From a virus (Duplodnaviria > Caudoviricetes), in IMG/VR virus record IMGVR_UViG_3300021426_000070, positions 1 through 64,000 of that record: a DNA stretch of 64,000 nucleotides; one strand, 5' to 3'. The first letter of the stretch is position 1. Each line of letters starts with the position of its first letter. Below the pieces are notes generated by a model, which worked only from the letters and a program-made list of their open reading frames with translations, ran no database searches and had not been told where the DNA came from. Below are positions 9,524 to 47,924 of the stretch, one piece after another. The position numbers and the translations under genes are program-made.

Positions 9524-9528
9524 CTATG

Positions 9529-10293: not shown

Positions 10294-10855
10294 TTTAAAT
10301 GTTCAACACAACGGTCTGACCCATAAAAAAGTCAATCCCGCAACCTTGAATTTGTCATTTTTAACCTTGTCTCGAGTCTTATAGGACGTACAAAAACAAA
10401 GCGAGCCGTTAGGAATTATCCCTAACGACTCTGACCTTGTTGGATGCAGTCTTCGGGAGACAACTTTTCAGTTGATAGGGAGTCCCGAAAGTATCTGCAT
10501 ATGTTTAGTGCAACGCAATGCCTTTCGTACCGCTATCCAGCTCCCTATTTCCTTCAAGCATTGCAAAGGTACGAACATTTTTTTGTATTTGCAAATTTTA
10601 TCCATGATTTTTGCTCATATTTTGGTTTCTTTAACATCTGCCCCCAAAAGATGCCGTTCTTTATACACAAGATACATGGCTCTGCGATACGCCCGTCTGT
10701 TCTCTATATCCTTTTCGGTCATATTCTCATTCTGCTTACGCCTATACTCTTTTCCGTAAGCTAAAAGGCGTTCTCTGTTGTTCTTGTAATACTCTCTGTT
10801 AGCCTCTTTCAGCCGCTCTAAATGCTTCAATCGGTATTGGCGCATATACTCACGC

Positions 10856-11266
10856 CTATTTCTTCTGTTCTGTTCTGATATCATAAGTAGTACCTTTTAC
10901 TTTTAACTCTGCATATCTGCCATCAACATTATGTCTCAGCATCTTACCCAATGGGGAATGATTGTCAAATGGGCTACCATCATTAATGAAGAAATATCCG
11001 TCTGAATGATATTCCACAGAGCCAAACGGCTTCTTATCATCAAATCTCGAATAAATCAAATCGCCCTCGAATATAGGCTTATTGTCAAAGTCATAAAGCC
11101 CCGTAAACTGCCCAACACTCTCGGGGACTACCTCATAGCCGCCGACCATCAACCTATCAGTAAGGAACGGCTCGGTCTTATTGACCTTCTTGTTATGCAC
11201 CAAGTCACCATAGACCCAACCTTTGCGACCATTGGCATCCCATCCTCTGAATTTTATTTCTCTCAT
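10856..11266 (-). CDS. YopX family protein
   Basis: MREIKFRGW...WVYGDL...VGQFTGLYD...IFEGD. Confidence 0.85.
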   Translation of the reverse strand: MREIKFRGWDANGRKGWVYGDLVHNKKVNKTEPFLTDRLMVGGYEVVPESVGQFTGLYDFDNKPIFEGDLIYSRFDDKKPFGSVEYHSDGYFFINDGSPFDNHSPLGKMLRHNVDGRYAELKVKGTTYDIRTEQKK

Positions 11267-11374
11267 ACAAACGAAATCTTTACATGGGTTATAAGATAGA
11301 CTATCAGTATCATCAACACACAGAGCACCAAAGAGCACCCAAGACAATTTGAACCATCATTTTTTGCCATAACA

Positions 11375-12253
11375 CTATTCTCTATTAGGATATCTAAACT
11401 TGTATTTCTCTCTTACGTCTTCAAGGAAATCCAAATAATTGAAATTCGGATTATCTTTCTTTATAATTTTTAATAGCATCTTACGCTCCATATCGCTAAA
11501 ATCAGCACTCTCTTGCATCTTTTCGTACAGATTACGATACATGGCTGCGTCTTCCATCCACCCTTGCGAATTTTTTGAAACAGCCTCTAGCTTTTCTTTC
11601 AGCTCATTATAAGACAGCTCACGACCACTTTTTTCCAACTCACTGCGGAGCAACTGTTCATTTCTCTCTGCCCTTTCCAACGCCTTGTTTCTCTCAATCT
11701 TCGTGCTGACCCAATTATAATAGAACTTCTCACCGAGGTTCAATTGGGCATCCGTGTATTTCTCTTTGTGAAGACATGGAGCTTTCTTTTGGATAAAAAG
11801 CCTATTTTCCTTTACCCATATCAGACCCGCATATTCGGGCACTTCTTCAACTTGTATCATGCCATATGGAACGGCATAGTAGAAGTAGTTTGGCATTCGC
11901 TTATTATCCACAACCCTTTCGATGTGCTGTTTGATATCATCATCATCCCAATACCTATACTTCTTCTCCATTTTGCCGAATAGGTCTTGCTCATAGACCT
12001 TCTGTTTATCTTTGGCAATGGTAGAGCTGAGGACAATATGCTTTTCTAGCTTATGCTTGAAATCATTCTTGTAGTCAGCACGGCTAATCTTAATCTCGAA
12101 CTCATGGATATACCCGCTCTTAGTCCATAGAAGCTTATCAGACTCCCATGGGAACACATAGAGGTTATCGACATTATATTTCACGCTGCCATGAGCAAAG
12201 AACCCGTTGAGTGCCCGTTGAATGGTCTGTTCTGTATAAACGAAATCACTCAT
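11375..12253 (-). CDS. MmcB-like PD-(D/E)XK nuclease-fold protein with coiled-coil tail
   Basis: WESD...EFEIKISRADYKNDFK, PNYFYYAVP...VPEYAGL. Confidence 0.6.
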   Translation of the reverse strand: MSDFVYTEQTIQRALNGFFAHGSVKYNVDNLYVFPWESDKLLWTKSGYIHEFEIKISRADYKNDFKHKLEKHIVLSSTIAKDKQKVYEQDLFGKMEKKYRYWDDDDIKQHIERVVDNKRMPNYFYYAVPYGMIQVEEVPEYAGLIWVKENRLFIQKKAPCLHKEKYTDAQLNLGEKFYYNWVSTKIERNKALERAERNEQLLRSELEKSGRELSYNELKEKLEAVSKNSQGWMEDAAMYRNLYEKMQESADFSDMERKMLLKIIKKDNPNFNYLDFLEDVREKYKFRYPNRE

Positions 12254-12430
12254 ATTCCTCTCTGTCGTTTGGTGTGAAACTTATCTGCATGGTGACACAC
12301 AGCCACCCGCACAGAATCCTATCCCAACTGACATCAAAGAACGGCAATACATGGAACTCCCACATAGGGCAAAACGTTGTCAGATGGAAACTCAGAAACT
12401 TACCTATATACAAATCTGTCTTCATAATCT

Positions 12431-12760
12431 TTACCAATTTTCTACACCAAACGACTTCAAGGCTTCGTCAAGTTGGTGAACAGTGAACTTTCCAACATTT
12501 CTGCAGTTGCTGAAGTTTGTTCTGCCATATTTCACTAATGCGCCCACGGAAAGGATATTGTTTTCTCTGCACCTACTATTCACCATCTTTGGAATACTTG
12601 TCTTTGCAGCAATCTCCCAAATAGGAGTGGCTTCCAACAACCTCATCTTTTGGTCAACACCATTGACAACCCAATCGTAAAAAACCTTTGTGGTCTCTAC
12701 ATTCAAGCCGCTTGCTAATGCGACTTTTGCCAACTCTAATCTAATCTCTACGTCTGTCAT
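12431..12760 (-). CDS. Protein with RNA polymerase alpha-CTD-like domain
   Basis: NSRCRENNILSVGALV...CRNVGKFTVHQLDEALKSFG helix-hairpin-helix pattern. Confidence 0.6.
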   Translation of the reverse strand: MTDVEIRLELAKVALASGLNVETTKVFYDWVVNGVDQKMRLLEATPIWEIAAKTSIPKMVNSRCRENNILSVGALVKYGRTNFSNCRNVGKFTVHQLDEALKSFGVENW

Positions 12761-12762
12761 AA

Positions 12763-13233
12763 TCAACAAAATAAATCTTTATATAATGCATCATCAAAAA
12801 TCTCATCGTAATCGTGGTCATATTCAGAAAAACCAAATTGTGACATTTCACGGTTCAAATCCGCCAAATCTGCCAAACGCCTCGGTCTTTGCATCCTACG
12901 TTGAACATACTCGTCAATCCCAAATTCTTCAACATCTTTAGGTGAACAATATACATTGCCATCACTTGTTATGCTGAAAGGAGTTTCTTTCGTGATTAAC
13001 AGCCACGTGTCTTTGATATGGTTCTTCAGCTCTTCTTTTGGATAGACCGTTTCTGCGTCTGAATCAATAATAGCGATAGCCATAGCATCAAACAAAGCTT
13101 GCTCTTCATCGGTCAGCTTAAACCAACTCATATTAGATAAGCACCACATCACATAGCCGATATGGGTAAGGATAAGCTTTTTTATAGGCTCACCTTTATA
13201 CTTACCAAATGTTATCTTTCTGTCTTCAGTCAT
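12763..13233 (-). CDS. FGKYKG-motif (DUF3820/ExoX C-terminal-like) protein
   Basis: ITFGKYKGEPI...YVMW. Confidence 0.5.
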   Translation of the reverse strand: MTEDRKITFGKYKGEPIKKLILTHIGYVMWCLSNMSWFKLTDEEQALFDAMAIAIIDSDAETVYPKEELKNHIKDTWLLITKETPFSITSDGNVYCSPKDVEEFGIDEYVQRRMQRPRRLADLADLNREMSQFGFSEYDHDYDEIFDDALYKDLFC

Positions 13234-14287
13234 AATCAGCACCCCCTAAAAACCTCTTGTTTCTTCTCGCTACAAACCTTTACGGGATTGAGTATCTGCA
13301 CAAGCTCTTGTTTTGTGATATTCGCCCTCATTGACTCGTGGCGTAGGAAACGCTCGTAGTCTGCCCGTATCTCTTCATTACTAATCGTCTGTTTCATAAC
13401 AACCAATATAACTTAATGTTCGTCTGTGCATGGCACGCTCTTCTTGTGTCATATCATCAAAACGCTTACCATATATTATTTTCATAAAAAACTCTTTTCT
13501 ATCCATCAGTAACCTATATTATTCAAGCTACAATACAAGCATGGATTGAAATCGTCATCCTCTATGGGGTCGCCTTCTTCTCTCCAAAGCTCTGCCTCTC
13601 TTCGTAACCTACGGCAATTCTCACACAAACTCACCATCACCCAAAAATCTTTTTTGCTCTTCTGTTCATTTCTGCATAAGTCATCGAGATAGGATTATCA
13701 CCGAACAACGAGCCCATACGGAAATACTCATGCTTGCCGTAATGCGGCTTATTCAGCGTAATCTCGTTTCGCTTGAGGTTCTGCAGCACGCTACGGACAA
13801 CCAAGATAATAGACATATCCCTACTGACATCCATAATGCGCATTTTGTTTCTCACCTCGTTCTCAAAGATATGGTATTGGCATACTATATCAAAGTTACC
13901 CAACTTTTCTTTCACGCTATCGAACACACGTAACATCAGCATAGCAATCTCTTCTTCTGTTTTCGGACGATAGCCGTACTTCAGACCAAAGAGGTAGCTA
14001 AGGTCTTCAATCATCGTGTTACCCTTATGCTCTAACCAACCCTTAGAGTAGAGCACGATATCATTAAATTCGAAATTCTCAATCATTGCCACTGATACTT
14101 AATGCGTTATAATAATACTGAGCCTCATTGATGGTCATGGGCTTGTCGCTCTCAACCGTAAGGTTCTCACCCTCTCTCGTGAAGATATTGAAACTTGTGT
14201 ACCGCTTAGGGGGTGTAGGACGGGTAGTAGTAGGAACTACCCGCACTACATTCTTACGTCCCTTAGCAAGTCGCTTACAAAGATTAC

Positions 14288-15358
14288 TCATAGCATCATC
14301 AATTCTGTTGCCTTGAACACCTTCTGCTGCACACGACCCTGCATGATAGCATCAAACTTCGTCTCTTCACTGCGGAAATCAGCGTAATTCTGAAAGTACG
14401 AGGTCAATCCGTTGTAAACCCAAAGGGCTGTGCCACGCTCACCCATATCCTGACCCACACCGCTCTCGATGGCAAGGCGCATACCCTTCATGATGTTCTG
14501 TGTGCGAGTAGGAACGTCACTATGCCCGTTCGTCTCTGTATAGAGCTTGAAAGCCTCATCAGACATCACCACACTAGCAATGATGTTATCCAAGTCCTTC
14601 TCAGCCACCTTTACAAGCCGCATGTGCTCGAAACGCTCTTTGAGTGACTTAGTATATACGTCCATCAGATTTAACGCCTTACAAGCCATCAGAGCGTTTT
14701 CTTCGTTCGTGAGGTCAAGACGCTGTGTGACATGAGCTGAGTGGCGCAAAGAAAGACAACCGACATTGTTCTGCAACGCTGAGTTAAGAGTGTTGTTGCA
14801 GACCACACGGACGGGGGTACACATACACTTTACAGACCCCATGCCGTCATGTGAGGTGGTGAACACCATATAGAGCTCTACTCTGTCATCACCCTTATTG
14901 TCAAGAATGATATCCTCAGCGAACTTAGCTGTGACAAACACACGCTCACCATTACCAAGGACACCCGCACTCTCGATGACGGGAGCACCCGAGCCACCCG
15001 AGCAAAGGGTATCAATGAAAGAGAAAGCCTCGCTGTTCTGTACAACGCCGTAAGCATCGGTGACAACACCCAACGGCTTGTTCTCGTCCATACGCATTGT
15101 AGCCTTACGCCCCTTGATAAGAGCATCTAGGATAAGGTCTGAGCTTACAGACTGACTAGCCATAGCCTCTTGTAAGGCTGGTGTCAGTGCAAAAACGTCC
15201 TTTAACTCTACATTGTAGTCCGCATGAGAAGCCTCAAGAGCCTCTTTGACCGTCATTGGTCTGTCAAAAACTTGCCCAAGACCATGCCATGCACGTTCTT
15301 TACGACCATTCTCTGCAAAACTAGCAATCCCGTTCTTAATCTCGATGTTGTGTGACAT
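14288..15358 (-). CDS. DUF932 family phage/plasmid protein
   Basis: AWHGLG, YGVVQNSEAF, TSHDG, TPVRVVCNNTL, GTALWVYNG. Confidence 0.85.
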   Translation of the reverse strand: MSHNIEIKNGIASFAENGRKERAWHGLGQVFDRPMTVKEALEASHADYNVELKDVFALTPALQEAMASQSVSSDLILDALIKGRKATMRMDENKPLGVVTDAYGVVQNSEAFSFIDTLCSGGSGAPVIESAGVLGNGERVFVTAKFAEDIILDNKGDDRVELYMVFTTSHDGMGSVKCMCTPVRVVCNNTLNSALQNNVGCLSLRHSAHVTQRLDLTNEENALMACKALNLMDVYTKSLKERFEHMRLVKVAEKDLDNIIASVVMSDEAFKLYTETNGHSDVPTRTQNIMKGMRLAIESGVGQDMGERGTALWVYNGLTSYFQNYADFRSEETKFDAIMQGRVQQKVFKATELMML

Positions 15359-15370
15359 AATTCTGAAAGT

Positions 15371-16261
15371 TTAAATTGTTACGCTTAAAATATTGTTTAC
15401 GTTAATACCCCAACCTAAGCCCAATGAGTGCAAAAAATAATCCACTTCGTTGAGCGACTTCTTGCCAGCACCTCTGCAAGACAAGAACCTCAGCTTTGAC
15501 ATGCCGCAAAGGTCGCCGATTGTTTTGACATCCAAAGCGACAAGGGCTGTCATTGTACGTACAGAAAAACCGCAGTCACGAATATCCTTGTTCAGTAATA
15601 GGATAAGCTCGTTTCTATCCATCTTTGATATATTCTGCTCTTTTTCGTTGAGCAAGACATTCTTTTCGCTCTGCGAAGCGATACGCTTGTAGGTCTCAAG
15701 ATTGGTCTTCAAAATCTTAATCTCGTCCTCGTATCGCTTAATGCTGTCAATCTTGTCCTTGATGTTGTTGACATGACGGCTCTTGCGGATAGCTACCTCA
15801 GCAATCTGTCTGATACGCTCTCTTGTCATGCCGTAATTAGCGGCAATTTCACTGAGGTCTTTGCCATTGACAACATCTATCAGCACGTTACCCTCTCGCT
15901 CTGTCAGCATCTCGTTTGCCTTCATCAGCTCGATAACGCTGACAAAGAATTGGCTACGAATACCATTGTTGACACTGAAAGCATATAGTCTGTTCATGTT
16001 ACGCTCATCATAGGCATAGTCGTTACAAGCCCGCTGTTCTTCTTTCAGCGCAATATACTTATCACGCTCTGCCTCTAACGCCCTACGAGCCTTTTCTACG
16101 TCCATCATGGGCTCTATGAGCTTTATGATAGTGTCCTTGTCAACATAGAAAGTACCGCTTATCTTTTGGTGTGGCAGCGACCCGTTGTCAATCCAATTAC
16201 GCAAGGTCTGTCTGCTGATACCCGTCAACTTCGATGCCTCTGATATAAGTATTAATTTCAT
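15371..16261 (-). CDS. Transcription regulator: MerR/excisionase-like HTH + sigma region-4-like HTH + alpha-CTD-like domain
   Basis: ISEASKLTGISRQTLRNW; LSEIAANYGMTRERIRQI; FSVRTMTAL...TIGDL...GAGKKSLNEV. Confidence 0.75.
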   Translation of the reverse strand: MKLILISEASKLTGISRQTLRNWIDNGSLPHQKISGTFYVDKDTIIKLIEPMMDVEKARRALEAERDKYIALKEEQRACNDYAYDERNMNRLYAFSVNNGIRSQFFVSVIELMKANEMLTEREGNVLIDVVNGKDLSEIAANYGMTRERIRQIAEVAIRKSRHVNNIKDKIDSIKRYEDEIKILKTNLETYKRIASQSEKNVLLNEKEQNISKMDRNELILLLNKDIRDCGFSVRTMTALVALDVKTIGDLCGMSKLRFLSCRGAGKKSLNEVDYFLHSLGLGWGINVNNILSVTI

Positions 16262-16683
16262 ATCTTTATACAGTTTTACGTGTGTCTCACGTTTTAAATC
16301 AAACCTAATCTTTCAGCCACATATTTATCTGTAGGCTCGTTCAAGTTACCTCTTACAGCGCAACCATCACCACAACCGCCATTAGCGATAAGGCTATCAA
16401 GCTCATTAAAAGCCATTAAAGACTCTCTTTCATTCAAGCCGCTCTTATACAGCTTCTCTGTGCCGTTCATCAAGCATTGGTAAATAAAATAAGTCTTTGT
16501 CATAACTCTTGCGCCTATTTTCTAACGTGTGGCTCTCACGCTCTAATCGAACTTTGATGATGCAAAGATACAACAAATATTTTTATCTTGCAAATTTTTC
16601 AGCAACTTTGTTACTAAATTTAACATTTTTACATTTGTCTATTGTTTTATTAACGTTTAGCTGTGTGGTAATCGTATTTTATA

Positions 16684-17430
16684 TCAGAATCCTAACGTCA
16701 ATTGTGCTTGTTCTGCTTGTACCCTCTTTACGGCTTTCTTATAATAGTCCTCTGACTTCTCAAAGCCTATGAAATGCCGCTTAGTATGGTGACAAGCTAC
16801 TGCAGTCGTACCACTACCAATAAATGGGTCAAGTACGACATCACCCTCCTTAGAGCTGAGTAGCAAGAACTCTTCCATAAGAGCCACGGGCTTTTGTGTG
16901 GGGTGTATCTTATCATCACCACTGACGGGCTTTATCTTCTTAACCCTATTATAAAACTCGTTCTGTTCCACTCTGTTGAGGGCAGTACCGTAATCATACA
17001 CACGCACGATATATTCAATGTTCTGACTAAATCGGTTCTTGTTGATGATACTAAGCGGTTTCTCCCATACGAGGATAGAGAACATATAGCCGTGTTTCTC
17101 AGCCCACAGACAATAATATGGCACTTGCGTTTCAGAACAGAACATATAGGCGTTCATTATCTTCATCTTCGGCTCTATCAGCGTAAGGAACTCATCAATA
17201 CACTTGTCATCAAAGTCGGACATGCCTTTCATCATAAAGCCGTCATTGCTATACAGCTCCGAGTTAGAGAAGACACTATCGGTATTGCATTGTGTACGCT
17301 CTTTGTAGGGCTTTCCGGTGGATTTGCAGAAATGATACGGAGGGTCTGTCAGCACAAGCGACACACTCTTATCCTCTATCATCTTCAACCCGTCTTTGTA
17401 GTCGCAATTATACACCTTATCCAACATCAT
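16684..17430 (-). CDS. DNA amino-methyltransferase (beta class)
   Basis: TDPPY; HPTQKP; DPFIGSGTT. Confidence 0.92.
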   Translation of the reverse strand: MMLDKVYNCDYKDGLKMIEDKSVSLVLTDPPYHFCKSTGKPYKERTQCNTDSVFSNSELYSNDGFMMKGMSDFDDKCIDEFLTLIEPKMKIMNAYMFCSETQVPYYCLWAEKHGYMFSILVWEKPLSIINKNRFSQNIEYIVRVYDYGTALNRVEQNEFYNRVKKIKPVSGDDKIHPTQKPVALMEEFLLLSSKEGDVVLDPFIGSGTTAVACHHTKRHFIGFEKSEDYYKKAVKRVQAEQAQLTLGF

Positions 17431-18197
17431 AAATCAAATAATGTTTTAGTCTGCTCCAAACCTTTCTTCGCTATATCGCAATACTCTGCCGATATCTCAA
17501 ATCCTATGTAATGCCTACGTAAAGCACGGGCTACAATCGCGGTTGTCCCAGAACCCATAAAAGGGTCAAGAACCAAATCTTTTTCATTTGACCAACTAAG
17601 AATGTGGCGTTTTACAAGTTCTATCGGAAAAACTGCGGGATGACCATTACGTCTTTGGTCAACCGATATATTCCAAACATTACTATCAACCTTTGTGTTG
17701 TTAATCTTAAAGTTACGATGTTCTTTGTGACCATTACCTCGCCTTGTCTCAATATCCGAATTAAAAACATATCCTGCTTTCTTACATTTTACTTTGATTG
17801 GATTAAATGTTTTTGCCGTACCCTTAACAAAAACAAACATATATTCAAATGATTGTTTGTATCGCTTAGCAGGAAAAACGGGAGCTGGATTTGGTTTATT
17901 CCATATCATCGTATCTGATAGATTGAAGCCTATATCCATCATCTTTAGTGCTTGACGGAACGATGACCCTGATTCTGTACCATTCACTGTTTGGTCGCCT
18001 ATCACCCATACGACAACACCACCTTGTTTAACCACACGGAATAACTCACGAGCTATATTCTCGAAATCAAAAGAATAGCCGTTATAAGTACGCAGATTAT
18101 CGTATGGCGGTGACGTTACCACCAAATCTACGCTATTTTCTTTCATTTGTCTCAACCCGTCAAGACAATCCATATTATATATCTTATCCAAGTCCAT
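17427..18197 (-). CDS. DNA amino-methyltransferase (beta class, SPPY, likely m4C or m6A)
   Basis: TSPPY; HPAVFP; DPFMGSGTT. Confidence 0.92.
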   Translation of the reverse strand: MDLDKIYNMDCLDGLRQMKENSVDLVVTSPPYDNLRTYNGYSFDFENIARELFRVVKQGGVVVWVIGDQTVNGTESGSSFRQALKMMDIGFNLSDTMIWNKPNPAPVFPAKRYKQSFEYMFVFVKGTAKTFNPIKVKCKKAGYVFNSDIETRRGNGHKEHRNFKINNTKVDSNVWNISVDQRRNGHPAVFPIELVKRHILSWSNEKDLVLDPFMGSGTTAIVARALRRHYIGFEISAEYCDIAKKGLEQTKTLFDL

Positions 18198-18200
18198 AAC

Positions 18201-18689
18201 TTAGTCGTTAAGCTTAACATACTTTCCTTCAATATCGCAGTTTCTCAGTCGTTTGTCGCACTCTTCACCAAAGGCTACTAGGACACTTCCAAACATGGGA
18301 GACTTACGGTTGCCATCAGCATCGATAAACTTTACTCTATGGCGCATAAAAAGCATACTCTTTGCACGAGGAAAAATTATCTCATGGAACAGAAGATTAT
18401 CCGTCCTATTTACCAACAAGGCTATACCTTTATGTCTAGAAAGTTTTTCCACGAACTGCCTTAACAGAGGATTAGAGTAAGGTGGATTAAGCCATACGAC
18501 ACCTTCCCATGGTTTATTCAACCCATCATCGTCCTTAGTCCAACAGATAGGTGCTGTCTGAAAAGGTCTAACGTCAGTTGGTACAGCGCAAGGGTCACAA
18601 TCAAAACGACCTAGCTTCGTCAACAATTCTTTTGGAGTGTACCACTCATCAGAAGAAACGCTCTTGTTTTTCTGTGTTCTCTTATCCAT
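18201..18689 (-). CDS. Phage Dam-like N6-adenine methyltransferase
   Basis: DEWYTP, FDCDPC, DGL..PW, WLNPPYS. Confidence 0.85.
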   Translation of the reverse strand: MDKRTQKNKSVSSDEWYTPKELLTKLGRFDCDPCAVPTDVRPFQTAPICWTKDDDGLNKPWEGVVWLNPPYSNPLLRQFVEKLSRHKGIALLVNRTDNLLFHEIIFPRAKSMLFMRHRVKFIDADGNRKSPMFGSVLVAFGEECDKRLRNCDIEGKYVKLND

Positions 18690-18855
18690 ATTCGCTATTA
18701 AACACAAAGACCCCCCGAAATCAGTCACTTGTGGTTGGCAGCTTTGTGTGACCTCATTCGGGGAGTCCCGTTATGCCTATCAAGTTTACTTTTACTGCCA
18801 AACGATTGCAAAGGTAAGCATTTTATTTGTACCATGCAAGTTTTTTGGCATTTAT

Positions 18856-19143
18856 TTATTTTGTTTTATCTTTTTTTGCAAATGGGTTTTTCCTATTGTT
18901 CCGTCTAAAGAACTCAGCCTCATCAACCTCTTCCCATACCTCGCCATAAGCCACATGCTGCTTGTCACGTGCCATCAGCAACAGATAGCGGTAAGGTATC
19001 TCGTTCACAACTTCGGCATACGATAGGTGCAAGTTCTCCATAAAGGTAGCGACTTGTCCTAAAAGCGTCTCGTTGCCTATGACTTCTGATTTGCTATCAG
19101 CTTTCTGACGCTCTTGCTTAAAGCGGATAGCCTCTGAAAATCC
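18856..19143 (-). CDS. Tail assembly chaperone, frameshift extension (gpT-like)
   Basis: The -1 frame relative to 19077-19457 is open from GGATTTT (19137-19143) through MENLHLSYAEVVNEIPY. Confidence 0.6.
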   Translation of the reverse strand, partial: GFSEAIRFKQERQKADSKSEVIGNETLLGQVATFMENLHLSYAEVVNEIPYRYLLLMARDKQHVAYGEVWEEVDEAEFFRRNNRKNPFAKKDKTK

Positions 19144-19457
19144 TTGATGTCAAGTAATGATATAGCCTTTGACAGACCTTCTATAATCTCACCCATAGTA
19201 CCTTTCGACAACTCTTCCGCCAAAGTGTCATCGTCAACGATAAACCATGATAACGCTTCGGCTGCTTTGTTCATGTCCTTCATCATCGAGAACATATCCG
19301 CAAACGACTCTCCGTCAAAGGACGAAAGACAAAGCCCCGCTGCCGCTATCTTGTGGATTGTCGGCGGCTTGATATAATAGGGCTTGCCATTTACGACAAC
19401 CGTATTATTCTCAGCCCCAAGGATAGCCTTACTAACTAAATCTGCTCCGTTTTCCAT
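19077..19457 (-). CDS. Tail assembly chaperone (gpG-like)
   Basis: Position after the tail tube gene; slippery heptamer near the 3' end. Confidence 0.65.
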   Translation of the reverse strand: MENGADLVSKAILGAENNTVVVNGKPYYIKPPTIHKIAAAGLCLSSFDGESFADMFSMMKDMNKAAEALSWFIVDDDTLAEELSKGTMGEIIEGLSKAISLLDIKDFQRLSALSKSVRKLIANQKS

Positions 19458-19473
19458 ATTACTTGATAAAAAA

Positions 19474-19498
19474 GAGAGGGAGGCTTACCTCCCCCTCG
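19474..19498 (-). terminator. Intrinsic terminator after tail tube gene
   Basis: GAGGGGGAGG-TAAG-CCTCCCTCTC followed by a T-run on the minus strand. Confidence 0.7.
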
Positions 19499-19516
19499 AT
19501 TAATATATAAAGAGGA

Positions 19517-20065
19517 TTATGCCTCTTCTGCGCCAAACATGTACTCAGCCTCAACACCATTTGTTTCTGTCTCCATACAAACGGCGGTGATACCAAGACC
19601 GATGTTCTTCTCTTGTTGGTCGCCCTTAGCAACGATAGAGGCGTTAGAGAAGACAATCCAGTTGCCAGTCTTTGTCTTAGCAACGACACACTTGTTGACA
19701 TTCTCAAGCGCACCGCTAGACTTCCAACCGACCTCATCGTTCTTGTCTGCACCTTCACCGCCTTTGGTGATTACCGCACCACCCTGCAATGCTGCCTTAT
19801 CCTCGAACTGATAGACACCAAGGGTAAATGTGATGGTACGAGCACCAAGGTTCTCCTTGTCACGATAGTAGGGCTGTCCCGTAAGCTCATTGATATACTC
19901 GGTAACGGATGGGTCGTCTTGCGAATAACCCCATGTTCCCTCGTGGACGTTCTTGACCTCTTTCATGCTCTGAACAAGCTGCGCCACTTCAGCAGCACTA
20001 GCAAGGTCAGAAGAAAGAACGTCTCCATACCACAACTGCTTAATTCCAATAAAAGGTTTTGCCAT
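19517..20065 (-). CDS. Major tail tube protein
   Basis: Synteny, size and beta-rich composition (NVHEGTWGYSQDDP). Confidence 0.7.
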   Translation of the reverse strand: MAKPFIGIKQLWYGDVLSSDLASAAEVAQLVQSMKEVKNVHEGTWGYSQDDPSVTEYINELTGQPYYRDKENLGARTITFTLGVYQFEDKAALQGGAVITKGGEGADKNDEVGWKSSGALENVNKCVVAKTKTGNWIVFSNASIVAKGDQQEKNIGLGITAVCMETETNGVEAEYMFGAEEA

Positions 20066-20092
20066 ATCTCTTCAATTTTTAATTGTTACACA

Positions 20093-20485
20093 CTATAAAG
20101 TATTAAGGGTTTCAAATAATATCTGAAAGTGGACGTAATGCGAGCCTAGCTGTTGGCTCTGCTCCCTAGAACGGCGGGAATAGGATATGTCGTAATGCTC
20201 TCCGTTGTATTCTCCCGCTAATCCGTCATGGAAAATGCGGTAAGCCTCACGTTCAATGTCATCAAGTCTGATGTCAGCTTCGCCCTCGATGTCGGGCAGA
20301 AAGAAATTGACTTCCACGAAACACTTGTCAAAGATACGACCCTCAGAGTCCTCTTTCGGTAGGATAGTGATACGCCCCTCTTGTGGGATGTTCGCAATGG
20401 GGATATGCCCCTTGACGTAGATAGGCATGTCAAAGCCCTCTATCATCTGCGAAACTATCACTGCCATATCTTCCGTAGTAATCAT
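20093..20485 (-). CDS. Tail terminator/completion protein
   Basis: Synteny in the head-tail block. Confidence 0.5.
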   Translation of the reverse strand: MITTEDMAVIVSQMIEGFDMPIYVKGHIPIANIPQEGRITILPKEDSEGRIFDKCFVEVNFFLPDIEGEADIRLDDIEREAYRIFHDGLAGEYNGEHYDISYSRRSREQSQQLGSHYVHFQILFETLNTL

Positions 20486-30115: not shown

Positions 30116-31558
30116 TTATGATTGTGGTGGTTGCTGTGGTTCGGGTGGTTGTGGGTTTGCCCCCTCTTTGGCTGCGTTCTCTGCCGCCAACCTCTCAGCT
30201 TCGGCTAGCTGTATCTTTTCAATTTCTTCCTTCGGTGCATCGGTTAGCGCAAGCATGGTCACTGCCGTTTCAAGAGAAATGACACCTCCGCCATACAGAT
30301 TGACGATACCCGACCAATTCTTTGTAGAGTCATCGGGGAATGGGTCAGAGAACTCAAAGCTGATTTTAAGCTTATCTATCTGTGAAGTCATATCGGGGTG
30401 TATGTTCTTTAGCACCTCTAAGGTAACGTGTAAGTAACGGGTAATCATTTCCTCGTACACCTCCAAGCGGTTAGCACGCTTGATATATCCAAGTATCATA
30501 GCGTTACGCACTGCCACACCCGAAAGAGTGCCCAAGCCCTTCATATTCTCAAACGAGAAGTCGGGTGTGAACGTGTCGAATAGGATAGTGGCATTGAGGT
30601 TCGCTTTCTCATCACGCCTTGTTGACGAGTCTTGTGGCGGCTCGATGTATCGGAACTGAGATTTTTCACTAGGCATCTGTATCAGTCTGCCCGGTTTGTC
30701 AACCTCGGGAAGACTAGCTATGACATCGGCTGTTGCAGCGGCTATCGGGTCTGCGTAATAGTTGTTTGTGTCACCAATCTTAGAATCGAGCTCTTCATCA
30801 CGCTTAATACGCTGTTCCGCTCCGTCCCATGCTTTAGGCTGCATGAAAAGGATAGCGTTAATCTTACCCGTTGGGTTCACAATGCTGTTCACCTCCCAAC
30901 CGAACATACCCTTGCGGCATTCAAAAGTGGCATCAGCGGTAAGTATATCCCAATGGAGCACGTTCTTTCCATTCTCTAAGAGCTTATAGCCATAGGCGAA
31001 AGCTATAAGGTTTCTGTATTGGTCGAATAGGTATTTGATACGATAACCAAGCGAACGTGCTACTACAAAAACGTCTGTTCCAATCGTCTCGTCTGCATTC
31101 CGATGGAAATGTGTTACTAGTGCCGACATTGTTTCAGCACCCGCCAATCGCTTACATTGGCGTATCTTAGCATTGAAGAAAGTGTCTTTGAGATAATCGG
31201 TGAACAGCTTGTAGGCATCGTCATCACCTTCTTCTTTCTTCCATACGATAGGCTCACCGAGTAGAAAGAACAGCTCAACCTCATTGATATAACGCTCACG
31301 TGTACGTGGCAGCTTCTCAGAGATATAAGGACTGCCGCCCTCAATTTGCTTGTTCGGTCTTCTCATCACATCATGAAGAAGTGGGTTATACTCCTTCAAA
31401 GCCTTGTCAATATCAGTGTCCCTTGTGGTCATTAGAGATAACACCTTATCGACCTTGCCGTCTTCCATGAGCTTGAAAATATCCTTCCTCGCACCCGTGG
31501 AGTTTAGTGTGAGATTCTTGAAGAAACTCTCTATGTGATTAATTAACGTAAATTCCAT
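30116..31558 (-). CDS. Portal protein (SPP1 gp6-like)
   Basis: 480 aa; FLLGEPI, DTNNYYADP, LSGVA, ISLETAV patterns. Confidence 0.85.
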   Translation of the reverse strand: MEFTLINHIESFFKNLTLNSTGARKDIFKLMEDGKVDKVLSLMTTRDTDIDKALKEYNPLLHDVMRRPNKQIEGGSPYISEKLPRTRERYINEVELFFLLGEPIVWKKEEGDDDAYKLFTDYLKDTFFNAKIRQCKRLAGAETMSALVTHFHRNADETIGTDVFVVARSLGYRIKYLFDQYRNLIAFAYGYKLLENGKNVLHWDILTADATFECRKGMFGWEVNSIVNPTGKINAILFMQPKAWDGAEQRIKRDEELDSKIGDTNNYYADPIAAATADVIASLPEVDKPGRLIQMPSEKSQFRYIEPPQDSSTRRDEKANLNATILFDTFTPDFSFENMKGLGTLSGVAVRNAMILGYIKRANRLEVYEEMITRYLHVTLEVLKNIHPDMTSQIDKLKISFEFSDPFPDDSTKNWSGIVNLYGGGVISLETAVTMLALTDAPKEEIEKIQLAEAERLAAENAAKEGANPQPPEPQQPPQS

Positions 31559-36471: not shown

Positions 36472-38442
36472 AACTACTCATTTTAATTACAGGTTCAATA
36501 TCATAATTTTCACTAACAAATATTTCAGCACTGTATTCAAGATATCGGCACTGAGTTTTAAATGTTTTTATTTTTTCTTCTATAGTTCTTTTATTTGTTG
36601 CCATAGTTATTTCTTTAATCGTTTTTTAATAACATTAATAAAAATTGAGCCGATGAATATATTGTAAACCATTCCAATCGGCTTGTTATATTTCATAACC
36701 TTGAAGAATGGTTTCCAAACATAATCAAGTATCGTAAAATTCACTATAAACCTTTTAAACTCCATTGGTTTTTCTCAGATTAAATTTTCCAAACAGTATC
36801 TAATAGCAGCGTTACAAGCAAATTCATACTTGTCATAAAGTGGCAGCATTTCTTTTACATATACCCATTCTGAACCCCTAAGTTGCCATGGAGTAAAGGA
36901 ATACTTATCTTTTTGGGGATTGACAGATATAACAATATTGTACTTTTTCCTCAGCCACTTGCAAGCAAGCTGATGAGTTATTGCCCACACACATTCATAA
37001 TCATCTTCTGATTTATGAATACCATTAAGGTTGCAACAAAGAATAGGTTCACTATCCTTATATCGTCTAATATATCCCACCACAAATTTATGTGGGTACA
37101 AGAAAGTTTCGACCTCTTTATAATCAAACCCTTTCTCTTTCAATAGCTTTGCGACCTCGAACGAAATATAATCCTCAGTTATTGTTGCCATAGTTCTTTC
37201 TTTAATTGTTCAATAACGCTTTCTAAATATCCGTTTGCACGTGCATTCATACTAGTTAAGAACAGTTTCTGAAACTCTTCAATCTGCTCAAGCACATAGT
37301 TTGCACCATCTTCAATACCTTGGGAATAAGCAATGCTTTCTTCTCTCGAGAGTTCTACTCTTTTTTCGACCAACTCTTCTGCCTTTTCTTTGATACTCAT
37401 CATACCTTTTCTACTGATAAAGCGAATATTTTATAAAATCTGTCGTAGGGGAAGTCTTTAATCTCGACCTCCTTAACATTATCACTGCGCCCGTATAGGT
37501 TGCCGTTTACAAGCAGCTCAAGCCAATAGTGTTCACCTTTCTTGAACACCCCGAAATCTTTCTTGCAAATCAGCCAATGCGTCAATGCTGTTCTTAACTC
37601 TTTTTCACCCATAGCCTTATTTGTTATATTCTTTAAGTAGATAGCAAACTTGCTCGCAGAAATCAACACCGTCCATTTCACGATTATCTATCGCTTTTTG
37701 TATTTCTTTCAATACATTGTTCGCCTTTTCGTATTTCTTCTTATAATCCATGGTCACAACATTTTTGTTTCATGTAACTTCTCAATCATAGCCACACAAG
37801 CATCAATTGGGTTGCTTGCTGTGTCTCCTATGTGGCAGAAAGTACAATTCTCATTATAAGTGTCGCATCGCCAACCATTATAAGTTTTATGCAATGAAGG
37901 GTTTGGCAGAACACTAATCAACGCTGCAAGCGACCAACAAGGAAGATATATTGCATCTGTTTCTTTATAACTTTCAGCAACAATCTCACTATATCCAAAA
38001 GATGGAGATTTCAACGCATCAGGGTCATCCTTCCAAAAGAACCATTTCGAATCCGCACTATTATACGGTAGTATCTCAGCAAGCTTACGGCTTTGCTCAA
38101 TAGTTGTGTATGTTCTAATTAATGCCATAGTCGTTTTACTTAAAATCAAAACTCACCTTCTTGCGCTTTCTTTGCCGTAATCTCTATGACACGCCAAAAG
38201 AAATCATGGAACGTATATACCTCTTTCTCAGCCTCAGACCATATCTTCGGCTCATCGGCAATATACGATAGCATAGCCACCTTCGACTTGTCAATGCTAT
38301 TGTAGCTGCTGTCCTCATTCCAAAGGATAGCGTCCTTGTCAACGCCAACGAACACATAGTAGTCTTTCGTCAACGCATAAAAAGCTATTTTCAGCCTTTC
38401 GATAAATGATGTTCTCTGTTTCATAATCATAATCAATTTTAG

Positions 38443-38516
<74 letters not shown>

Positions 38517-38569
38517 GTTGCCAACCGCCGTTGGCTTTGTTTAACCAAAAAAATCTCGCAAAATAACAG

Positions 38570-38643
38570 TGATTCCGATGGGGCTCGAACCCATGACCTA
38601 TTGTTTAGGAAACAATTGCTCTATCCTACTGAGCTACAGAACC
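38570..38643 (-). tRNA. tRNA-Arg(CCT)
   Basis: Cloverleaf: GGTTCTG/CGGAATC acceptor, ATTGT-TTCCTAA-ACAAT anticodon arm, GGTTCGAGCCC. Confidence 0.95.
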
Positions 38644-40948: not shown

Positions 40949-41981
40949 ACTTCTACCTTTTCTATTTGTTTTATTGTCAACACAAACAAGCGTGCTGTTG
41001 CGTGCGCTGTACCATCTTTCTTCATTTTGGCTACAAGAGGGCGGAGTGTGTTGTATGTGAATTCATACCCTAAGACTATACCAATATCTTTTGTGCCGAC
41101 AACCCTTACCTTTGTGCCAGTTGGATATGGCGCATAGTTATTGATATATTCTCTTCTGAGTTTCATCAGCTCACCTTTCAGTGCCGATATTGATTTTCTC
41201 GTCTCAGAAATCCTCTGCAATATCTCTTGCTCAGTCATAACATTATCTAGTATAGGTTACTAACGGCTCTTCACTCACACAGATAGGTTGCAGCGGCTTA
41301 TTATAAGTAAGCACGCTAACCCAAATCTTACGCCTAAAAAGGAGCTTTAAGGCTTCTTTCCACGTCAGCCGCCAACACGAAACGACCTCACCATCCTCGA
41401 ACTTACACACGGGCAATGGAATTACACCATCTTGGTCTTTGCCGTAAACGGCATTACAACCACTGAACTCAATTGGCTTCATACTCTTACAAGTCTGTTG
41501 GTGGAACAATACGGAAATGCTTGAAGTCCTCTTTAGTGGCTTCTCTGTAATCAGCAGCGACTACTACCCTATCTATCAGCGTTGGGTCGCCGCCTTTCTC
41601 AACGTCAACAGCCATCACAACCATACCTACATAACCCGTTACCTTGTTAGGCTCATCAACCACATAGCCGAAAAGGTTCTCATTATCTACGATGTATCTC
41701 ATAGTCGCTTGCGTGATACTTAACCCGTCACAGCCTACGGAAAAAATTGGGGAAAGAAAGCGGCAGCTTATCGTCACTGTAGCTACCATCTTTCAAATCC
41801 CCATGTATATTTCTATAGACCGCCACAGTGACAAGACGGCTCACAAATACCTCTGCAAAGATAAGTAGAATAATTGGTTCTGCAAAATATTTTGTGGTTA
41901 TTTTATCATATTTTGCGTTTATTAACTTATAAACACAAAGACACATAATTAATAATAGCCGCTATTGCTAACGGCTATCAT

Positions 41982-42347
41982 TTATGATTTACCTTTTATC
42001 CAAGCATCAAGTCCTCTTGCGCCATAGTTCTTTTCTATACGCTCTTCCAATTCACTCTCGAGCTTGTTTCTACGCTCGTACAAGTCACTTCTGAGGTAGC
42101 CGACCTTAGCATGCTCTTTGTTGACCTTGTTTAGCCTATCGGCAATATCGTTGTACCCGAACGCCTTAGCCATGGTAACACTAGCACCGCCATGGTCATT
42201 GTTATCCGTCTGCCTTTGTGCTCTTGACACCGCACTTCTGAACTTGCGGCTATCCAAATCAACTGTCTGCCTAGGACGCTCGAGTCTCTCAGAGCCTCGT
42301 GAACTTTTTCGTTCACCGCCTCTTGTGATATCTACATACTCACCCAT
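41982..42347 (-). CDS. Basic hypothetical late protein
   Basis: ATG start; directly downstream of GTC-ORF A; followed by a hairpin at about 41955-41979. Confidence 0.6.
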   Translation of the reverse strand: MGEYVDITRGGERKSSRGSERLERPRQTVDLDSRKFRSAVSRAQRQTDNNDHGGASVTMAKAFGYNDIADRLNKVNKEHAKVGYLRSDLYERRNKLESELEERIEKNYGARGLDAWIKGKS

Positions 42348-42359
42348 AATTATCAGATA

Positions 42360-42689
42360 TTAACCATTTATACTACCCTTTGCAGCCGCTGCAGCTCTAT
42401 CTTCATTAGTTGCTCTCATGGCGTTTGTCATCAGAGTAGTAGCTAAAGTACCTTCTTGTGTTCTTGCACCACCAATAGTAAGGAAAGGTCTTGAACCTGC
42501 TATTTCTCTTGATGAAGTCCATCGTGAAGCTATCTCTCTAACTTGCTGTGCTCGTCTTATGTTACCAACAGCATTTGCTTGTCGGGCAAGGCGGCTTGCT
42601 GTCCTATTGATGTTCTCAGCAGTACGGAACGTGGTTCGCTTTAAACCATCACCACCGTAACTAATACGACCATTTCTATTTGTTCTGAC
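42360..42689 (-). CDS. GTC-initiated Arg-rich peptide A (109 aa, VRTNRNGR...AAKGSING)
   Basis: Open frame bounded by TGA immediately before GTC AGA; paralogue of peptide H (T[FY]RTAENI..TA.RL). Has its own promoter at 42724-42731. Confidence 0.7.
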   Translation of the reverse strand, partial: VRTNRNGRISYGGDGLKRTTFRTAENINRTASRLARQANAVGNIRRAQQVREIASRWTSSREIAGSRPFLTIGGARTQEGTLATTLMTNAMRATNEDRAAAAAKGSING

Positions 42690-42723
42690 TCAGCTAAATA
42701 TTTTGATTATTAATACTCTGCTG

Positions 42724-42795
42724 CAAAGATACAAATAAAAGAGATAGTACGAATACCACATCTATTATTACTTGTTACACTTTCAAAATAATACC
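42724..42795 (-). promoter_or_regulatory. Late-type promoter of peptide A
   Basis: TATCTTTG plus operator half-site GTTACACTTT at 42774. Confidence 0.65.
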
Positions 42796-42831
42796 CAAAA
42801 CAGCAAAGATACTGAAATATCAGCAGAAAAA

Positions 42832-42873
42832 CGTTACAACTTTTGAGGTAGGCGTTACAACTTGCGTTACAAA
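42832..42873. repeat. Triplet of CGTTACAACTT direct repeats
   Basis: Copies start at 42832, 42853 and 42865 (last one partial). Confidence 0.8.
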
Positions 42874-42923
42874 TAAAGGGCAGTAACATGTACCGCCCTT
42901 GTTTAGTGCCTTAATCAGTATTA

Positions 42924-45230
42924 TCAATAAACGCCCAACTCTTGCTTAGTAACCTTCTTCTTCACCAATGGATGCCCTAAGATGTTATGTAAAAAATAAT
43001 ACCGTACACCATCGAGTATGTGATTGTCGTGGTCTTCGGGTACGTTTGTGTAGTTACCGAACTTATCCTTTGCATAGACATAGTTTCGCAACTCATCTTG
43101 TGTATTCAAGGAACGCTTAGTTACATAAATCTCATAGTCAAGCATCTTTGACAAACCAGCCTCAATAGAGCCAGCACCTTTAGCCACGGGGTATATGATA
43201 ATACCGCCTAACGCTATCTCATCTACCAATCGTGGGTCTGCGCTCTCGGAATATACAAAACCATCATCACCTCTGTCCGCCTCTTGTCTAAGCTCACGGA
43301 TAATATCGCCACTTGTCATAGCATTTCGGTAACAGAGCTCGTCAATATACAAGCGGTTATCTATAACACCACACCTTGCGATAGCCGTAACGTCATTTGA
43401 ATATCCAAAGTCGATACATCTTCCTATCTTCTTTGCATAGCTCGGGAACTCATCAACGATACCCCATTTCTTGAACACAGCACCCTCAGCGACATCTGCC
43501 CACTGCCCCATGACGATATGCGCATACCTCTGAGGGTTCTTGACCTTCATATCAAGCACCTCTTTCAAGAACTGCTCGGAAAGGTTATTGATATTATCAA
43601 GGTATGTAGTATGGATATGTAGTACGTTCGGGTGTGTGCTTATCTGTACGGGTACGCCATCGAAATACTCTATCTTATGCGTGTCCTTGATAAACCGCTT
43701 ATACACCCAATGGTTAGAGTCGCATGGGTTCATGATGATGATTACCCTATTCTGCAGTCCTTTGACACGAATAGAGAGCATAATCTTCTCAAACTCTTCT
43801 TCCGACACCCATTCCTCAGCCTCATCGACAACAAACGTTGTGACACCTTGGATAGATTTAAGCTTTGCCGTCTGATTACCGCTTGAAGTGTGTATGCCTC
43901 GGAACATCACACGTGCCTTGGTCATATTGTTCACCACATCGGTCTTGGTCTTTGAGAAATACTCTTCTGTATTATCGACCTCCACCTTCTCCCAAAACTC
44001 GGGAATAACGGAGATAGCTGCCGACACCATGGTAAAACGGGTATATAGTATCTGATGGGCTAATTTCTTCTCGGGGTTATACTCAAAGGTGAGGCGTTCT
44101 ATAAAACGGGAAGTGTTGTACGACTTCCCACTGTTGTGACTAACAGTTCCATCTGCGTGTAAATAGCGTTGATTTCCATCCAAATGAATACCACACCATT
44201 CACCATTACCAACAGATTCAATAGTTAGCTTAGAAACCAACCAATCTGCTCTCTTATGTGGATATACTTTCTTACGTGCTATCTTACACGGAATACGCCA
44301 AACATCACCATTAATAGACAACCGATATACTATACCACAATCCTTTTCATATATCTTTGCTCTTCTTGTTCTTAAAGAAGTCCTAAAACCTAATGTATCA
44401 GCTATCAGCTTTATTTGTCTTGCAATAATCTCTTTCTTCTGTGTTATCTCATAACCATTACGAGACATATTGCCATCTGTATCAAGCAAACCAGCCAATA
44501 GCTCGAGTCGTACCTCTTCACTATTAGCTATATACTCTTGCGGAATATGCTTGTTACCTACAAGATTATAGAAACGCAACTTTTCCATAAAAGGATTATC
44601 GTGACACCCTTTTTTCTTTAAACGTAATGTTTCTGCCTTACCACGTTTACCATTCAATGACAACACCATTCCGTTTCTATCTACATACTCTTGCAGATAA
44701 TCCTTTATCTCTTTGTCGGGTGTTGTTATCTGAGGATATACCGAAGTACCGTCACCTAGCCAAACACCGAGCATATAGGGGTCAATCTTTACGGGCTGTT
44801 CTTTGTAAGGAATAGAGTTTGCCTTATAACCATACCAACGTTCTCTAAAATTCTTACTCTGTTTTAAGAACTCTTGAATATTGATATCTATCTTATCTTC
44901 TTTATTTGGATAGCGACCTTCGGAATATATGCCTCTGCCCTTTCTTATGCTTAATATGTGCCCATCGTTTACATAGTAGTCCTCAGCGTTCGTCTGATGT
45001 ACTCTATACATTTCACTATACCCGTGATAGGTTTTAAGCACGTTCCTTGGTGTGCCGTCATCACCCATCACCTTGTCACCAACCTTGATATCCTTAATCT
45101 GTTTAATGGTCATATCTGCCATTATCACCTCTTGGTCGGGTCGCTCACAGCCTCGTCCCCCCGTTACAAGAATGATGAATTTCTCCTTATCGTTATATAG
45201 CGGATAATATACGCTCTGTGTCTTACTCAT
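42924..45230 (-). CDS. terL: Terminase large subunit (PBSX-type), intein-containing
   Basis: Walker A GGRG|SGKS split by the intein; Walker B FVVDEAEE; MNP; IDFGYSND; DNHILDGVRY. Confidence 0.95.
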   Translation of the reverse strand: MSKTQSVYYPLYNDKEKFIILVTGGRGCERPDQEVIMADMTIKQIKDIKVGDKVMGDDGTPRNVLKTYHGYSEMYRVHQTNAEDYYVNDGHILSIRKGRGIYSEGRYPNKEDKIDINIQEFLKQSKNFRERWYGYKANSIPYKEQPVKIDPYMLGVWLGDGTSVYPQITTPDKEIKDYLQEYVDRNGMVLSLNGKRGKAETLRLKKKGCHDNPFMEKLRFYNLVGNKHIPQEYIANSEEVRLELLAGLLDTDGNMSRNGYEITQKKEIIARQIKLIADTLGFRTSLRTRRAKIYEKDCGIVYRLSINGDVWRIPCKIARKKVYPHKRADWLVSKLTIESVGNGEWCGIHLDGNQRYLHADGTVSHNSGKSYNTSRFIERLTFEYNPEKKLAHQILYTRFTMVSAAISVIPEFWEKVEVDNTEEYFSKTKTDVVNNMTKARVMFRGIHTSSGNQTAKLKSIQGVTTFVVDEAEEWVSEEEFEKIMLSIRVKGLQNRVIIIMNPCDSNHWVYKRFIKDTHKIEYFDGVPVQISTHPNVLHIHTTYLDNINNLSEQFLKEVLDMKVKNPQRYAHIVMGQWADVAEGAVFKKWGIVDEFPSYAKKIGRCIDFGYSNDVTAIARCGVIDNRLYIDELCYRNAMTSGDIIRELRQEADRGDDGFVYSESADPRLVDEIALGGIIIYPVAKGAGSIEAGLSKMLDYEIYVTKRSLNTQDELRNYVYAKDKFGNYTNVPEDHDNHILDGVRYYFLHNILGHPLVKKKVTKQELGVY
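44133..45149 (-). mobile_element. Intein with LAGLIDADG homing endonuclease (339 aa)
   Basis: Starts at Cys (CERPDQEV) and ends SHN before Ser; contains LGVWLGDG and LLAGLLDTDG motifs. Confidence 0.93.
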
Positions 45231-47521: not shown

Positions 47522-47532
47522 TCAGCTTCCTC

Positions 47533-47664
47533 CTATCTGTTAGATAATCCCATTTGACATACTCTAATTAAAGATTGTTGGATGATAACGCAACTGTCCG
47601 TTAGCGAAATGCTTCTTGGTCTTACCATTGCTCTCCAATTCGACAATGCCCTACCGAAATACAT
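47533..47664 (-). CDS. 43-aa ATG ORF ending MGLSNR (degenerate family member?)
   Basis: C-terminus matches the family except for a Gly>Arg change. Confidence 0.35.
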   Translation of the reverse strand: MYFGRALSNWRAMVRPRSISLTDSCVIIQQSLIRVCQMGLSNR

Positions 47665-47666
47665 TT

Positions 47667-47924
47667 TTAACCATTACTCAATCCCATATACGAGCTACGT
47701 GCAAACTGCAGTCTGTTGGCTCTGCCCATATTGCGCATATACTCATCTGTGTTGTCCTCAGCCGACACGTTGCCACGAGCCGCCTTATAGCTTGATTTGT
47801 TACGTATGTTGCTTACGTACCTCATAGCTGCTTGGAAAGCTCTATCCAAACGTTCCCCGTCTGTCCTAGCCGCTATGCGGTTGTACTGACGTGTTATATC
47901 ACTTACTGACTTTGTTCTTCTGAC
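47667..47924 (-). CDS. GTC-initiated peptide E (85 aa, VRRTKS...YMGLSNG)
   Basis: TAG TGT CGG GTC AGA; KS..DI..Q motif lies upstream of the first TTG/ATG. Confidence 0.72.
   Translation of the reverse strand, partial: VRRTKSVSDITRQYNRIAARTDGERLDRAFQAAMRYVSNIRNKSSYKAARGNVSAEDNTDEYMRNMGRANRLQFARSSYMGLSNG

Follow-up and report, generated by a model that had tools for sequence, protein, structure and literature searches.

The peptide A locus

The window analyzed here, a stretch of 64,000 nucleotides, comes from a phage genome of 129,359 bp, rated 100% complete by CheckV, and makes up its first 64 kb; the minus strand of this genome holds nearly all genes. The gene of interest, referred to below as peptide A, lies immediately downstream of the gene for the terminase large subunit (45248-42924, minus strand), an assignment confirmed by Pfam. 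This terminase carries an intein with Hint and LAGLIDADG homing endonuclease domains (window 44121-45159, minus strand; residues ∼30 to 370), which is missing from the related phage L003 and from a close relative that is ∼95% identical to this phage and represented by contigs of a single sample. The features of the locus are collected in Table 1.

Table 1. Positions of peptide A, its predicted control elements, and its paralogues in the window
Feature	Positions	Strand	Remarks
Terminator-like hairpin with T run	42876..42900	−	Just past the terminase large-subunit stop codon (42926-42924)
Three TTGTAACG repeats	42832..42872	−	Between the terminase terminator and both promoter boxes
Second, upstream TATCTTTG box	42804..42811	−	
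Predicted promoter −7 element TATCTTTGCA	42722..42731	−	35 nt upstream of the ORF; the TATCTTTG part is 42731-42724
AT-rich leader, 34 nt	42690..42723	−	Ends in an in-frame TGA; fold z-score −0.47
Start motif GCTGA-GTC-AGA	42684..42694	−	GTC at 42689-42687 is the proposed start codon
Peptide A coding sequence	42360..42689	−	109 codons plus TAA; pI 11.95; 11.8 kDa
Second cistron, ATG-started basic protein of 121 aa	41982..42347	−	Begins 12 nt past the peptide A stop codon
Terminator-like hairpin ending the two-gene unit	41951..41982	−	
Seven paralogues opening at GAGTCAGA, GGGTCAGA, or GAGTCAAA	46703..49413	−	
GTC codons of the paralogues	49413, 48395, 48176, 47924, 47521, 47309, 47044	−	

An in-frame TGA (42692-42690) directly precedes the codons GTC AGA (42689-42684), which open a frame of 109 codons that runs to a TAA at 42362-42360 and ends in AAKGSING. 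A sequence-only reading of this DNA had described the same layout, with a −7 box, a leader devoid of start codons, no Shine-Dalgarno (SD) sequence, and a first in-frame ATG close to the C terminus, and all of these observations were confirmed: no ATG, GTG, or TTG occurs in any frame of the leader, there is no GGAGG or purine run at positions −20 to −5, and the only canonical in-frame starts are the ATG codons 87 and 91. The near-cognate triplet ATT is codon 9. Out-of-frame ATG and GTG triplets do occur in the first 90 nt of the ORF, such as the ATG at nt 17-19, which opens a 10-codon frame. RNA structure around the start is not significant (the same z-score of −0.47), so that nothing resembling an IRES is seen there, and no Rfam family matches it.

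The element TATCTTTGCA, which is TATCTTTG followed by CA, has many intergenic minus-strand copies in the 129-kb genome, each of them before a gene, including the GTC gene at 49413. With its −7 TAnnTTTG sequence and suitable spacing, it is predicted to be a promoter of the Bacteroidota housekeeping type; no clear −33 TTTG was seen upstream of peptide A. The terminator-like hairpin after the terminase gene, combined with this recurrent box before the ORF, indicates that peptide A heads a two-gene unit of its own, as the earlier reading had proposed. Accordingly, re-initiation, readthrough, or frameshifting from an upstream gene would be poor explanations for its translation, and their dismissal in that reading is supported as well. 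The sole upstream ORF, a 59-aa ATG frame at 42889..42710, was rejected as spurious because its ATG lies in the terminator loop, it crosses both promoter boxes, and indels totaling 28 nt interrupt it in the 95% relative; there is thus no translated ORF ending near the start that might provide translational coupling. The TTGTAACG repeat is found in 7 copies in the window, 3 of them grouped upstream of the promoter boxes. This array may serve as an operator, and in the 95% relative it is highly variable, with frame-breaking indels.

Comparison with the same relative shows that peptide A is an accessory cassette. The relative lacks positions 42282-42716 and has 77 other letters there; it keeps the promoter and the leader up to ATTAATAAT, followed by ATG GGA GAA GG, the beginning of the downstream gene. 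The ORF is thus precisely missing there, and peptide A is regarded as dispensable. It appears to move together with its start motif, having been inserted where a leader already stood in front of the ATG of the following gene. The paralogue at 47044 is also precisely missing from the relative, by way of a 7-nt repeat at the ends, where GGATAA is conserved. Further, a decayed family remnant (window 47531-47679, minus strand), which ends in MGLSNR and a stop codon and has no start motif, lies between two intact GTC genes; in the relative, just 16 nt of this stretch are present.

A family of small basic proteins and its start motif

Eight ORFs in the window, peptide A at 42689 and the seven in the cluster, open at GAGTCAGA or a one-base variant of it. 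Their alignment shows a single family whose members have V-R/K at residue 1, a basic helix in the center, and Gly at the C terminus. Peptide A has the basic N terminus, the central (K/R)(S/T)xxxIxxQxxRL helix, and the C-terminal Gly, and it is matched by the family HMM with an E value of 2.5e-8, but it ends in AAKGSING instead of the C-terminal YSRxTYMGLSNG motif. Among the paralogues, the 47044 gene comes closest to it, with 49% identity across the core. A phage with an 88% identical terminase (L001) encodes seven such genes, all opening GA-GTC-A, among them an orthologue of peptide A (L001:797-1156, 45% identity), and a protein encoded on an 852-nt contig of a public MAG, GCA_016648615.1 (P0002), matches peptide A over its full length with 65% identity (E value of 1.7e-31). 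Judging from these alignments, peptide A belongs to a divergent subfamily with the 47044 gene, L001:797-1156, and P0002. The latter protein starts with M; its gene may have a GAGTC motif two codons past a canonical start.

The segment NRNGRIS (residues 4-10) is kept in all three of these relatives. Given that this conservation begins upstream of every near-cognate codon, the first of which is ATT9, translation must begin within codons 1-4. The ratio pN/pS, calculated in the GTC frame with the mis-framed L245 pair excluded, is 0.13 and 0.23 for sister genes of the family; for peptide A and its sole DNA-level orthologue it is 0.54, a saturated value. Family membership and the conserved N-terminal segment indicate that peptide A is most likely a real protein-coding gene for a small, very basic phage protein.

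A search of 1.84 billion proteins with the family profile returned 536 cluster representatives, most of them proteins of 67-113 aa that begin with MA(R/T)(R/K)KS and end with YMGLSNG. The ATG of these homologues, in ATG-GCA starts, falls within one codon of V1, as in P0007 compared with L098:4920-5132 and in P0012 compared with the 48395 gene. Removal of Met from MA... can be expected to leave A-R-K-K-S, similar to V-R-R-K-S. Tandem arrays of the ATG-type homologues occupy the same genomic place, and family genes lie near ParB-like and terminase genes. In a 165-kb IMG/VR phage (L247), positions 6160-20107 of the plus strand hold at least 10 family members, mostly in tandem and with ATG GCA ACA starts, one of them with ATG CCG ACA, which illustrates the degree of expansion open to this family.

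Neither Pfam nor PHROGs yielded a match for peptide A, its paralogues, or the ATG-type homologues, and the ESM Atlas gave just unnamed clusters, below 0.8. The AlphaFold model of peptide A is partly helical, with a pLDDT of 52. Searching viral and metagenome contigs with the single sequence and with alignment A2 recovered the L001 contig alone; P0002 as the query found nothing in genome contigs or viral contigs and nothing new among proteins, and a listing of cluster members added nothing. Pattern scans could not be based on alignments A1 and A3, whose sequences are too divergent. Some public entries of the family have displaced starts: P0009, P0011, P0013, and P0017 are extended to upstream in-frame starts, and P0001, the only public call of peptide A, reads it from an upstream ATG through the TGA as Trp, an artefact of code-4 gene calling.

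An HMM search of all stop-to-stop frames of 117 phage sources produced 46 distinct start contexts. One of these is a mis-pick; the 45 that are correctly placed have GTC (33 contexts) or GTT (12 contexts) as codon 1 and never GTA or GTG, whereas the internal valines of the same genes are divided between GTC/GTT (49%) and GTA/GTG (51%). The flanks are similarly constrained: G is found at −2 in 46/46 contexts, A at −1 in 45/46, and A at +4 in 46/46, and where codon 2 encodes Arg it is AGA in all 41 cases, compared with 48% of the internal Arg codons. The near-invariant positions of the motif are GC at −5/−4, GA at −2/−1, and AGA at +4 to +6. GGAGG is present at −13 to −9 in about 28 of the 46 contexts and is absent in peptide A and several others. 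A start-site position weight matrix (PWM) trained on other phages only ranks the peptide A site 5th among ∼259,000 genome positions, and all eight family starts are in its top 16. The window also contains genes for tRNA-Arg(UCU) and tRNA-Arg(CCU) (38442-38516 and 38569-38643, minus strand); AGA, the invariant codon 2, is the commonest Arg codon of the family.

Two ORFs in the genome may extend the use of this motif. A 103-codon ORF (window 39509-39198, minus strand) opens gcTGA-GTT-AGA and has the 3rd PWM rank in the genome; this ORF is possibly a gene with a GTT start that does not belong to the family, although the in-frame ATG at codon 13 makes its start ambiguous. A 222-codon ORF outside the window (position 67457 of the complete genome, G000, minus strand) opens agccGA-GTC-ACA, with an ATG four codons on. 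It lies 1.6 kb downstream of the tRNA described below and may have a dual or GTC start.

The phage tRNA(GAC) and its covariation with the start codon

Beyond the window, 26 kb from peptide A, ARAGORN detected a tRNA whose anticodon is GAC (69105-69178 of the 129-kb genome). This tRNA(GAC) displays initiator hallmarks, C1xA72, G2:C71, C3:G70, and A11:U24, together with A73. It agrees with the host-type initiator in the 5' end (CGCGG), D stem, and T loop and differs from it in the acceptor and T-stem sequences. In the anticodon arm, A29:U41, C30:G40, and U31.G39 take the place of the three consecutive G:C pairs (29-31/39-41; GGG/CCC in the host-type initiator), and the loop is UUGACUU, with U37 and U38, instead of the CUCAUAA loop with the CAU anticodon. 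Since it fails these two defining tests of the tRNAfMet class, it is termed here an initiator-type tRNA and not a tRNAfMet. The anticodon stem and U37/U38 each set it apart from every characterised initiator. The same program called an 89-nt tRNA-like gene outside the window (G000 85529-85617, minus strand), amid five ordinary tRNAs, with a four-base anticodon, atag.

Among 17 variants of tRNA(GAC), the cloverleaf is kept by compensatory stem changes; A11:U24, A29:U41, C30:G40, U31.G39, and the loop are invariant in all 17, and C1 stands opposite A72 or C72 in 16, with U1 in one. Global identity to host tRNAs (0.61-0.66) does not discriminate, several elongators scoring as high as the host initiator (0.61-0.65), so the assignment was based on the hallmark positions. 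In a prophage-bearing host-type genome with 26 tRNAs, CGCGG, C1xA72, and A11 occur together in just two of them, the host initiator and the tRNA(GAC) of the prophage.

A 15-mer from the anticodon arm identified 86 tRNAs in ∼110 IMG/VR hits; in prokaryote genomes it belonged to a tRNA in 1 of 120 hits, in a prophage, and the others were chance matches. L002 has the same kind of tRNA. An unannotated tRNA(GAC) is also encoded by a cultured phage of Bacteroides salyersiae, BS-TP2 (PQ571275.1, positions 30195-30267). There, the annotation of gp53 begins at an internal ATG (30751), and the gp53 frame opens agcTGA-GTC 33 nt upstream; the resulting GTC frame (30718-30912, plus strand; loci L005-L007) encodes 64 aa, ends in GSNG, and lies 450 nt downstream of the tRNA.

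In IMG/VR contigs picked by the protein motif and not by the tRNA, the start codon of the family genes changes along with the anticodon of the neighboring tRNA. Thus, GTC-type genes adjoin tRNA(GAC) in L251 and L098, and GTT-type genes adjoin an initiator-like tRNA(AAC) with the loop UUAACUU in L249/L250 and L252. Across the viral contigs, GAC goes with GTC or GTT starts and AAC goes with GTT starts. No such tRNA was found in the ATG-type phages L247, L248, and L253/L254, of which L247 and L248 are complete genomes of 165 kb and 55 kb, respectively, according to CheckV. The phage L003, with a 64% identical terminase, has no GTC cluster and carries in the syntenic spot, between the ParB-like and small terminase genes, an initiator-like tRNA(CAU) (positions 570-643, plus strand) with C1xA72 and the loop CUCAUAA. 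This tRNA may represent the ancestral state of the tRNAs with Val anticodons.

Proposed initiation at GUC and its alternatives

The sequence-only reading offered peptide A as a test case for start-less translation, for which the motif itself may be sufficient. Neither start-less translation nor a motif that takes the place of a start codon is supported: GUC fits the anticodon of the initiator-type tRNA(GAC) of the same phage, start codon and anticodon covary among phages, and the start codon lies inside the motif. GUC is most likely the start codon, so “start-less” would be a misnomer. Two features of the engineered orthogonal GUC system, the anticodon GAC and a matching GUC that opens an ORF with no start AUG, are found in this genome. 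The interpretation favored here, with a probability of roughly three in four, is that peptide A is a real but dispensable gene with its own Bacteroidota-type promoter that starts at GUC by means of the phage initiator-type tRNA(GAC).

According to this scheme, the promoter would transcribe peptide A as the first of two cistrons, and the GUC at 42689-42687 would be decoded in the ribosomal P site by tRNA(GAC), whose P-site competence is an assumption. Host ValRS would be expected to charge this tRNA with valine through A35, C36, and A73, and the host formyltransferase could formylate it through C1xA72, G2:C71, C3:G70, and A11:U24; no formyltransferase gene was found in the 129-kb phage genome. 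IF2 would then deliver it, as it does the engineered G34C36 E. coli tRNAfMet. More speculatively, G(−2)A(−1) and A(+4)G(+5) might pair with U38, U37, U33, and U32 of the UUGACUU loop, allowing the start to be chosen without an SD. A stronger version, in which the whole loop, complementary to GAGUCAG if G.U is allowed, pairs with this heptamer so that the tRNA selects the start site and the extended helix replaces both the SD and the missing P-site contacts of the three G:C pairs, appears doubtful. If it were true, the heptamer with its ORF would be a portable module, ready for insertion downstream of any promoter, and peptide A looks like an example of such an insertion. Pairing still further into the anticodon stem was rejected: the C at −4 stays C in the AAC-type phages, in which position 40 is C.

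Peptide A could be a decaying cassette, or a silent one that is open by chance or through recent insertion, considering that the close relative is precisely without it, that family genes are gained and lost with a decayed remnant left at 47531-47679, and that the structure model is poor. Such a fate is nevertheless unlikely for an ORF that directly follows a conserved promoter, has an intact start motif in 5th place genome-wide, and has a full-length counterpart in another assembly (P0002); moreover, just 0.06% of the stop-to-stop frames in a shuffled copy of the genome were as long as 109 codons. If peptide A is translated, the host fMet-tRNA might do the work, either non-cognately at GUC or at ATT9, naturally a weak start codon, with tRNA(GAC) being an unrelated elongator supplement or a nuclease-resistant decoy; phage tRNAs with altered loops have been proposed to evade anticodon nucleases (PMC10264068). 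This is quite improbable, because conservation in three homologues includes residues 4-8, which precede ATT, because codon 1 is confined to GTC/GTT in 45/45 contexts, as suits an anticodon with G34 or A34 but not CAU, and because the link between start codon and anticodon across phages would be left unexplained. In addition, C1xA72 is incompatible with an ordinary elongator.

The extent of the motif, which exceeds a codon and is nearly invariant at GC −5/−4, GA −2/−1, and AGA +4 to +6, could also be read as a nucleic acid signal for RNA processing, nicking or recombination, or protein binding, with initiation being tRNA-independent or driven by structure. The gain and loss of cassettes with the motif attached would agree with such a role, as would the presence of GAGTC, a known nickase site. 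A signal of this kind would hardly vary in the third position of codon 1 between C and T only, shift its central triplet along with the tRNA anticodon, or be wholly absent from the ATG-type homologues; together with the unstructured start without Rfam matches, this makes it very improbable. The public call P0001, in which peptide A has an upstream ATG start and the TGA is decoded as Trp, is barely credible as a reading and was rejected: TGA terminates 22 of the 78 long ORFs of the genome, 77 of which start at ATG, and ARAGORN found no TGA suppressor tRNA in it. The 24 residues that would be added cross the promoter box and look non-coding, and in other members of the family the stop codon immediately before the start motif is TAA or TAG.

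In bacteria, the GUG, UUG, and AUU (infC) starts are all read by the single host fMet-tRNA(CAU) through wobble or mismatch. The proposed use of GUC is similar in that the start triplet of a bacterial system is not AUG, and different in that a second, dedicated initiator-type tRNA would provide a cognate match at a codon that the host alone could not use. The crAss-like and Lak phages employ suppressor tRNAs to recode stop codons, with TAG or TGA read as sense. There, too, a phage tRNA gives a codon another meaning in some of the phage genes, which standard gene finders mis-call; that recoding acts in elongation and termination, whereas the GUC system would alter initiation.

The closest parallel is an engineered one. 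In the G34C36 mutant, E. coli tRNAfMet has the anticodon GAC; ValRS charges this tRNA, it becomes formylated, and proteins then start at GUC with formyl-valine (Schulman, RajBhandary; PMC2268962). GUC start by an engineered GAC initiator works in bacteria, archaea, and mammalian cells (PMC2268962). Both systems have an initiator-type body with GAC and a GUC start in an mRNA lacking AUG, and Val is the expected first residue in both. Unlike the engineered tRNA, the phage tRNA is natural, phage-encoded, and widespread and would serve particular phage genes that share a fixed, extended start context; unlike tRNAfMet, with its CU...AA flanks and 3 G:C pairs, it has the loop UUGACUU and no such pairs. 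Its loop differs from that of the host counterpart at positions 32, 37, and 38, which is a likeness to the nuclease-evading phage tRNAs of PMC10264068; the latter keep their decoding identity, while tRNA(GAC) has the anticodon switched, on an initiator body, to the codon of another amino acid. Full-text literature searches found no natural counterpart of the GAC initiator, and a GUC start with its own starter-type tRNA has so far been known from engineered systems only.

Peptide A is the best substrate for examining this mechanism, having its own promoter, a short unstructured leader, no SD or upstream ORF, and no canonical in-frame start for 86 codons; the earlier choice of this gene as the cleanest family member to test thus stands. 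Detection of its tryptic peptide NGRISYGGDGLK would exclude starts at ATT9 or Met87. GTC-started genes escape standard gene finders, and peptide A is either absent or mis-called in public protein sets. If the proposed mechanism is true, nature has made the orthogonal initiation that synthetic biologists have built, and the remodelled anticodon arm may teach the rules of P-site acceptance. Some phage proteins would then be made only when the phage initiator-type tRNA is present, and, if confirmed, GUC would be a natural second start codon owned by a virus.
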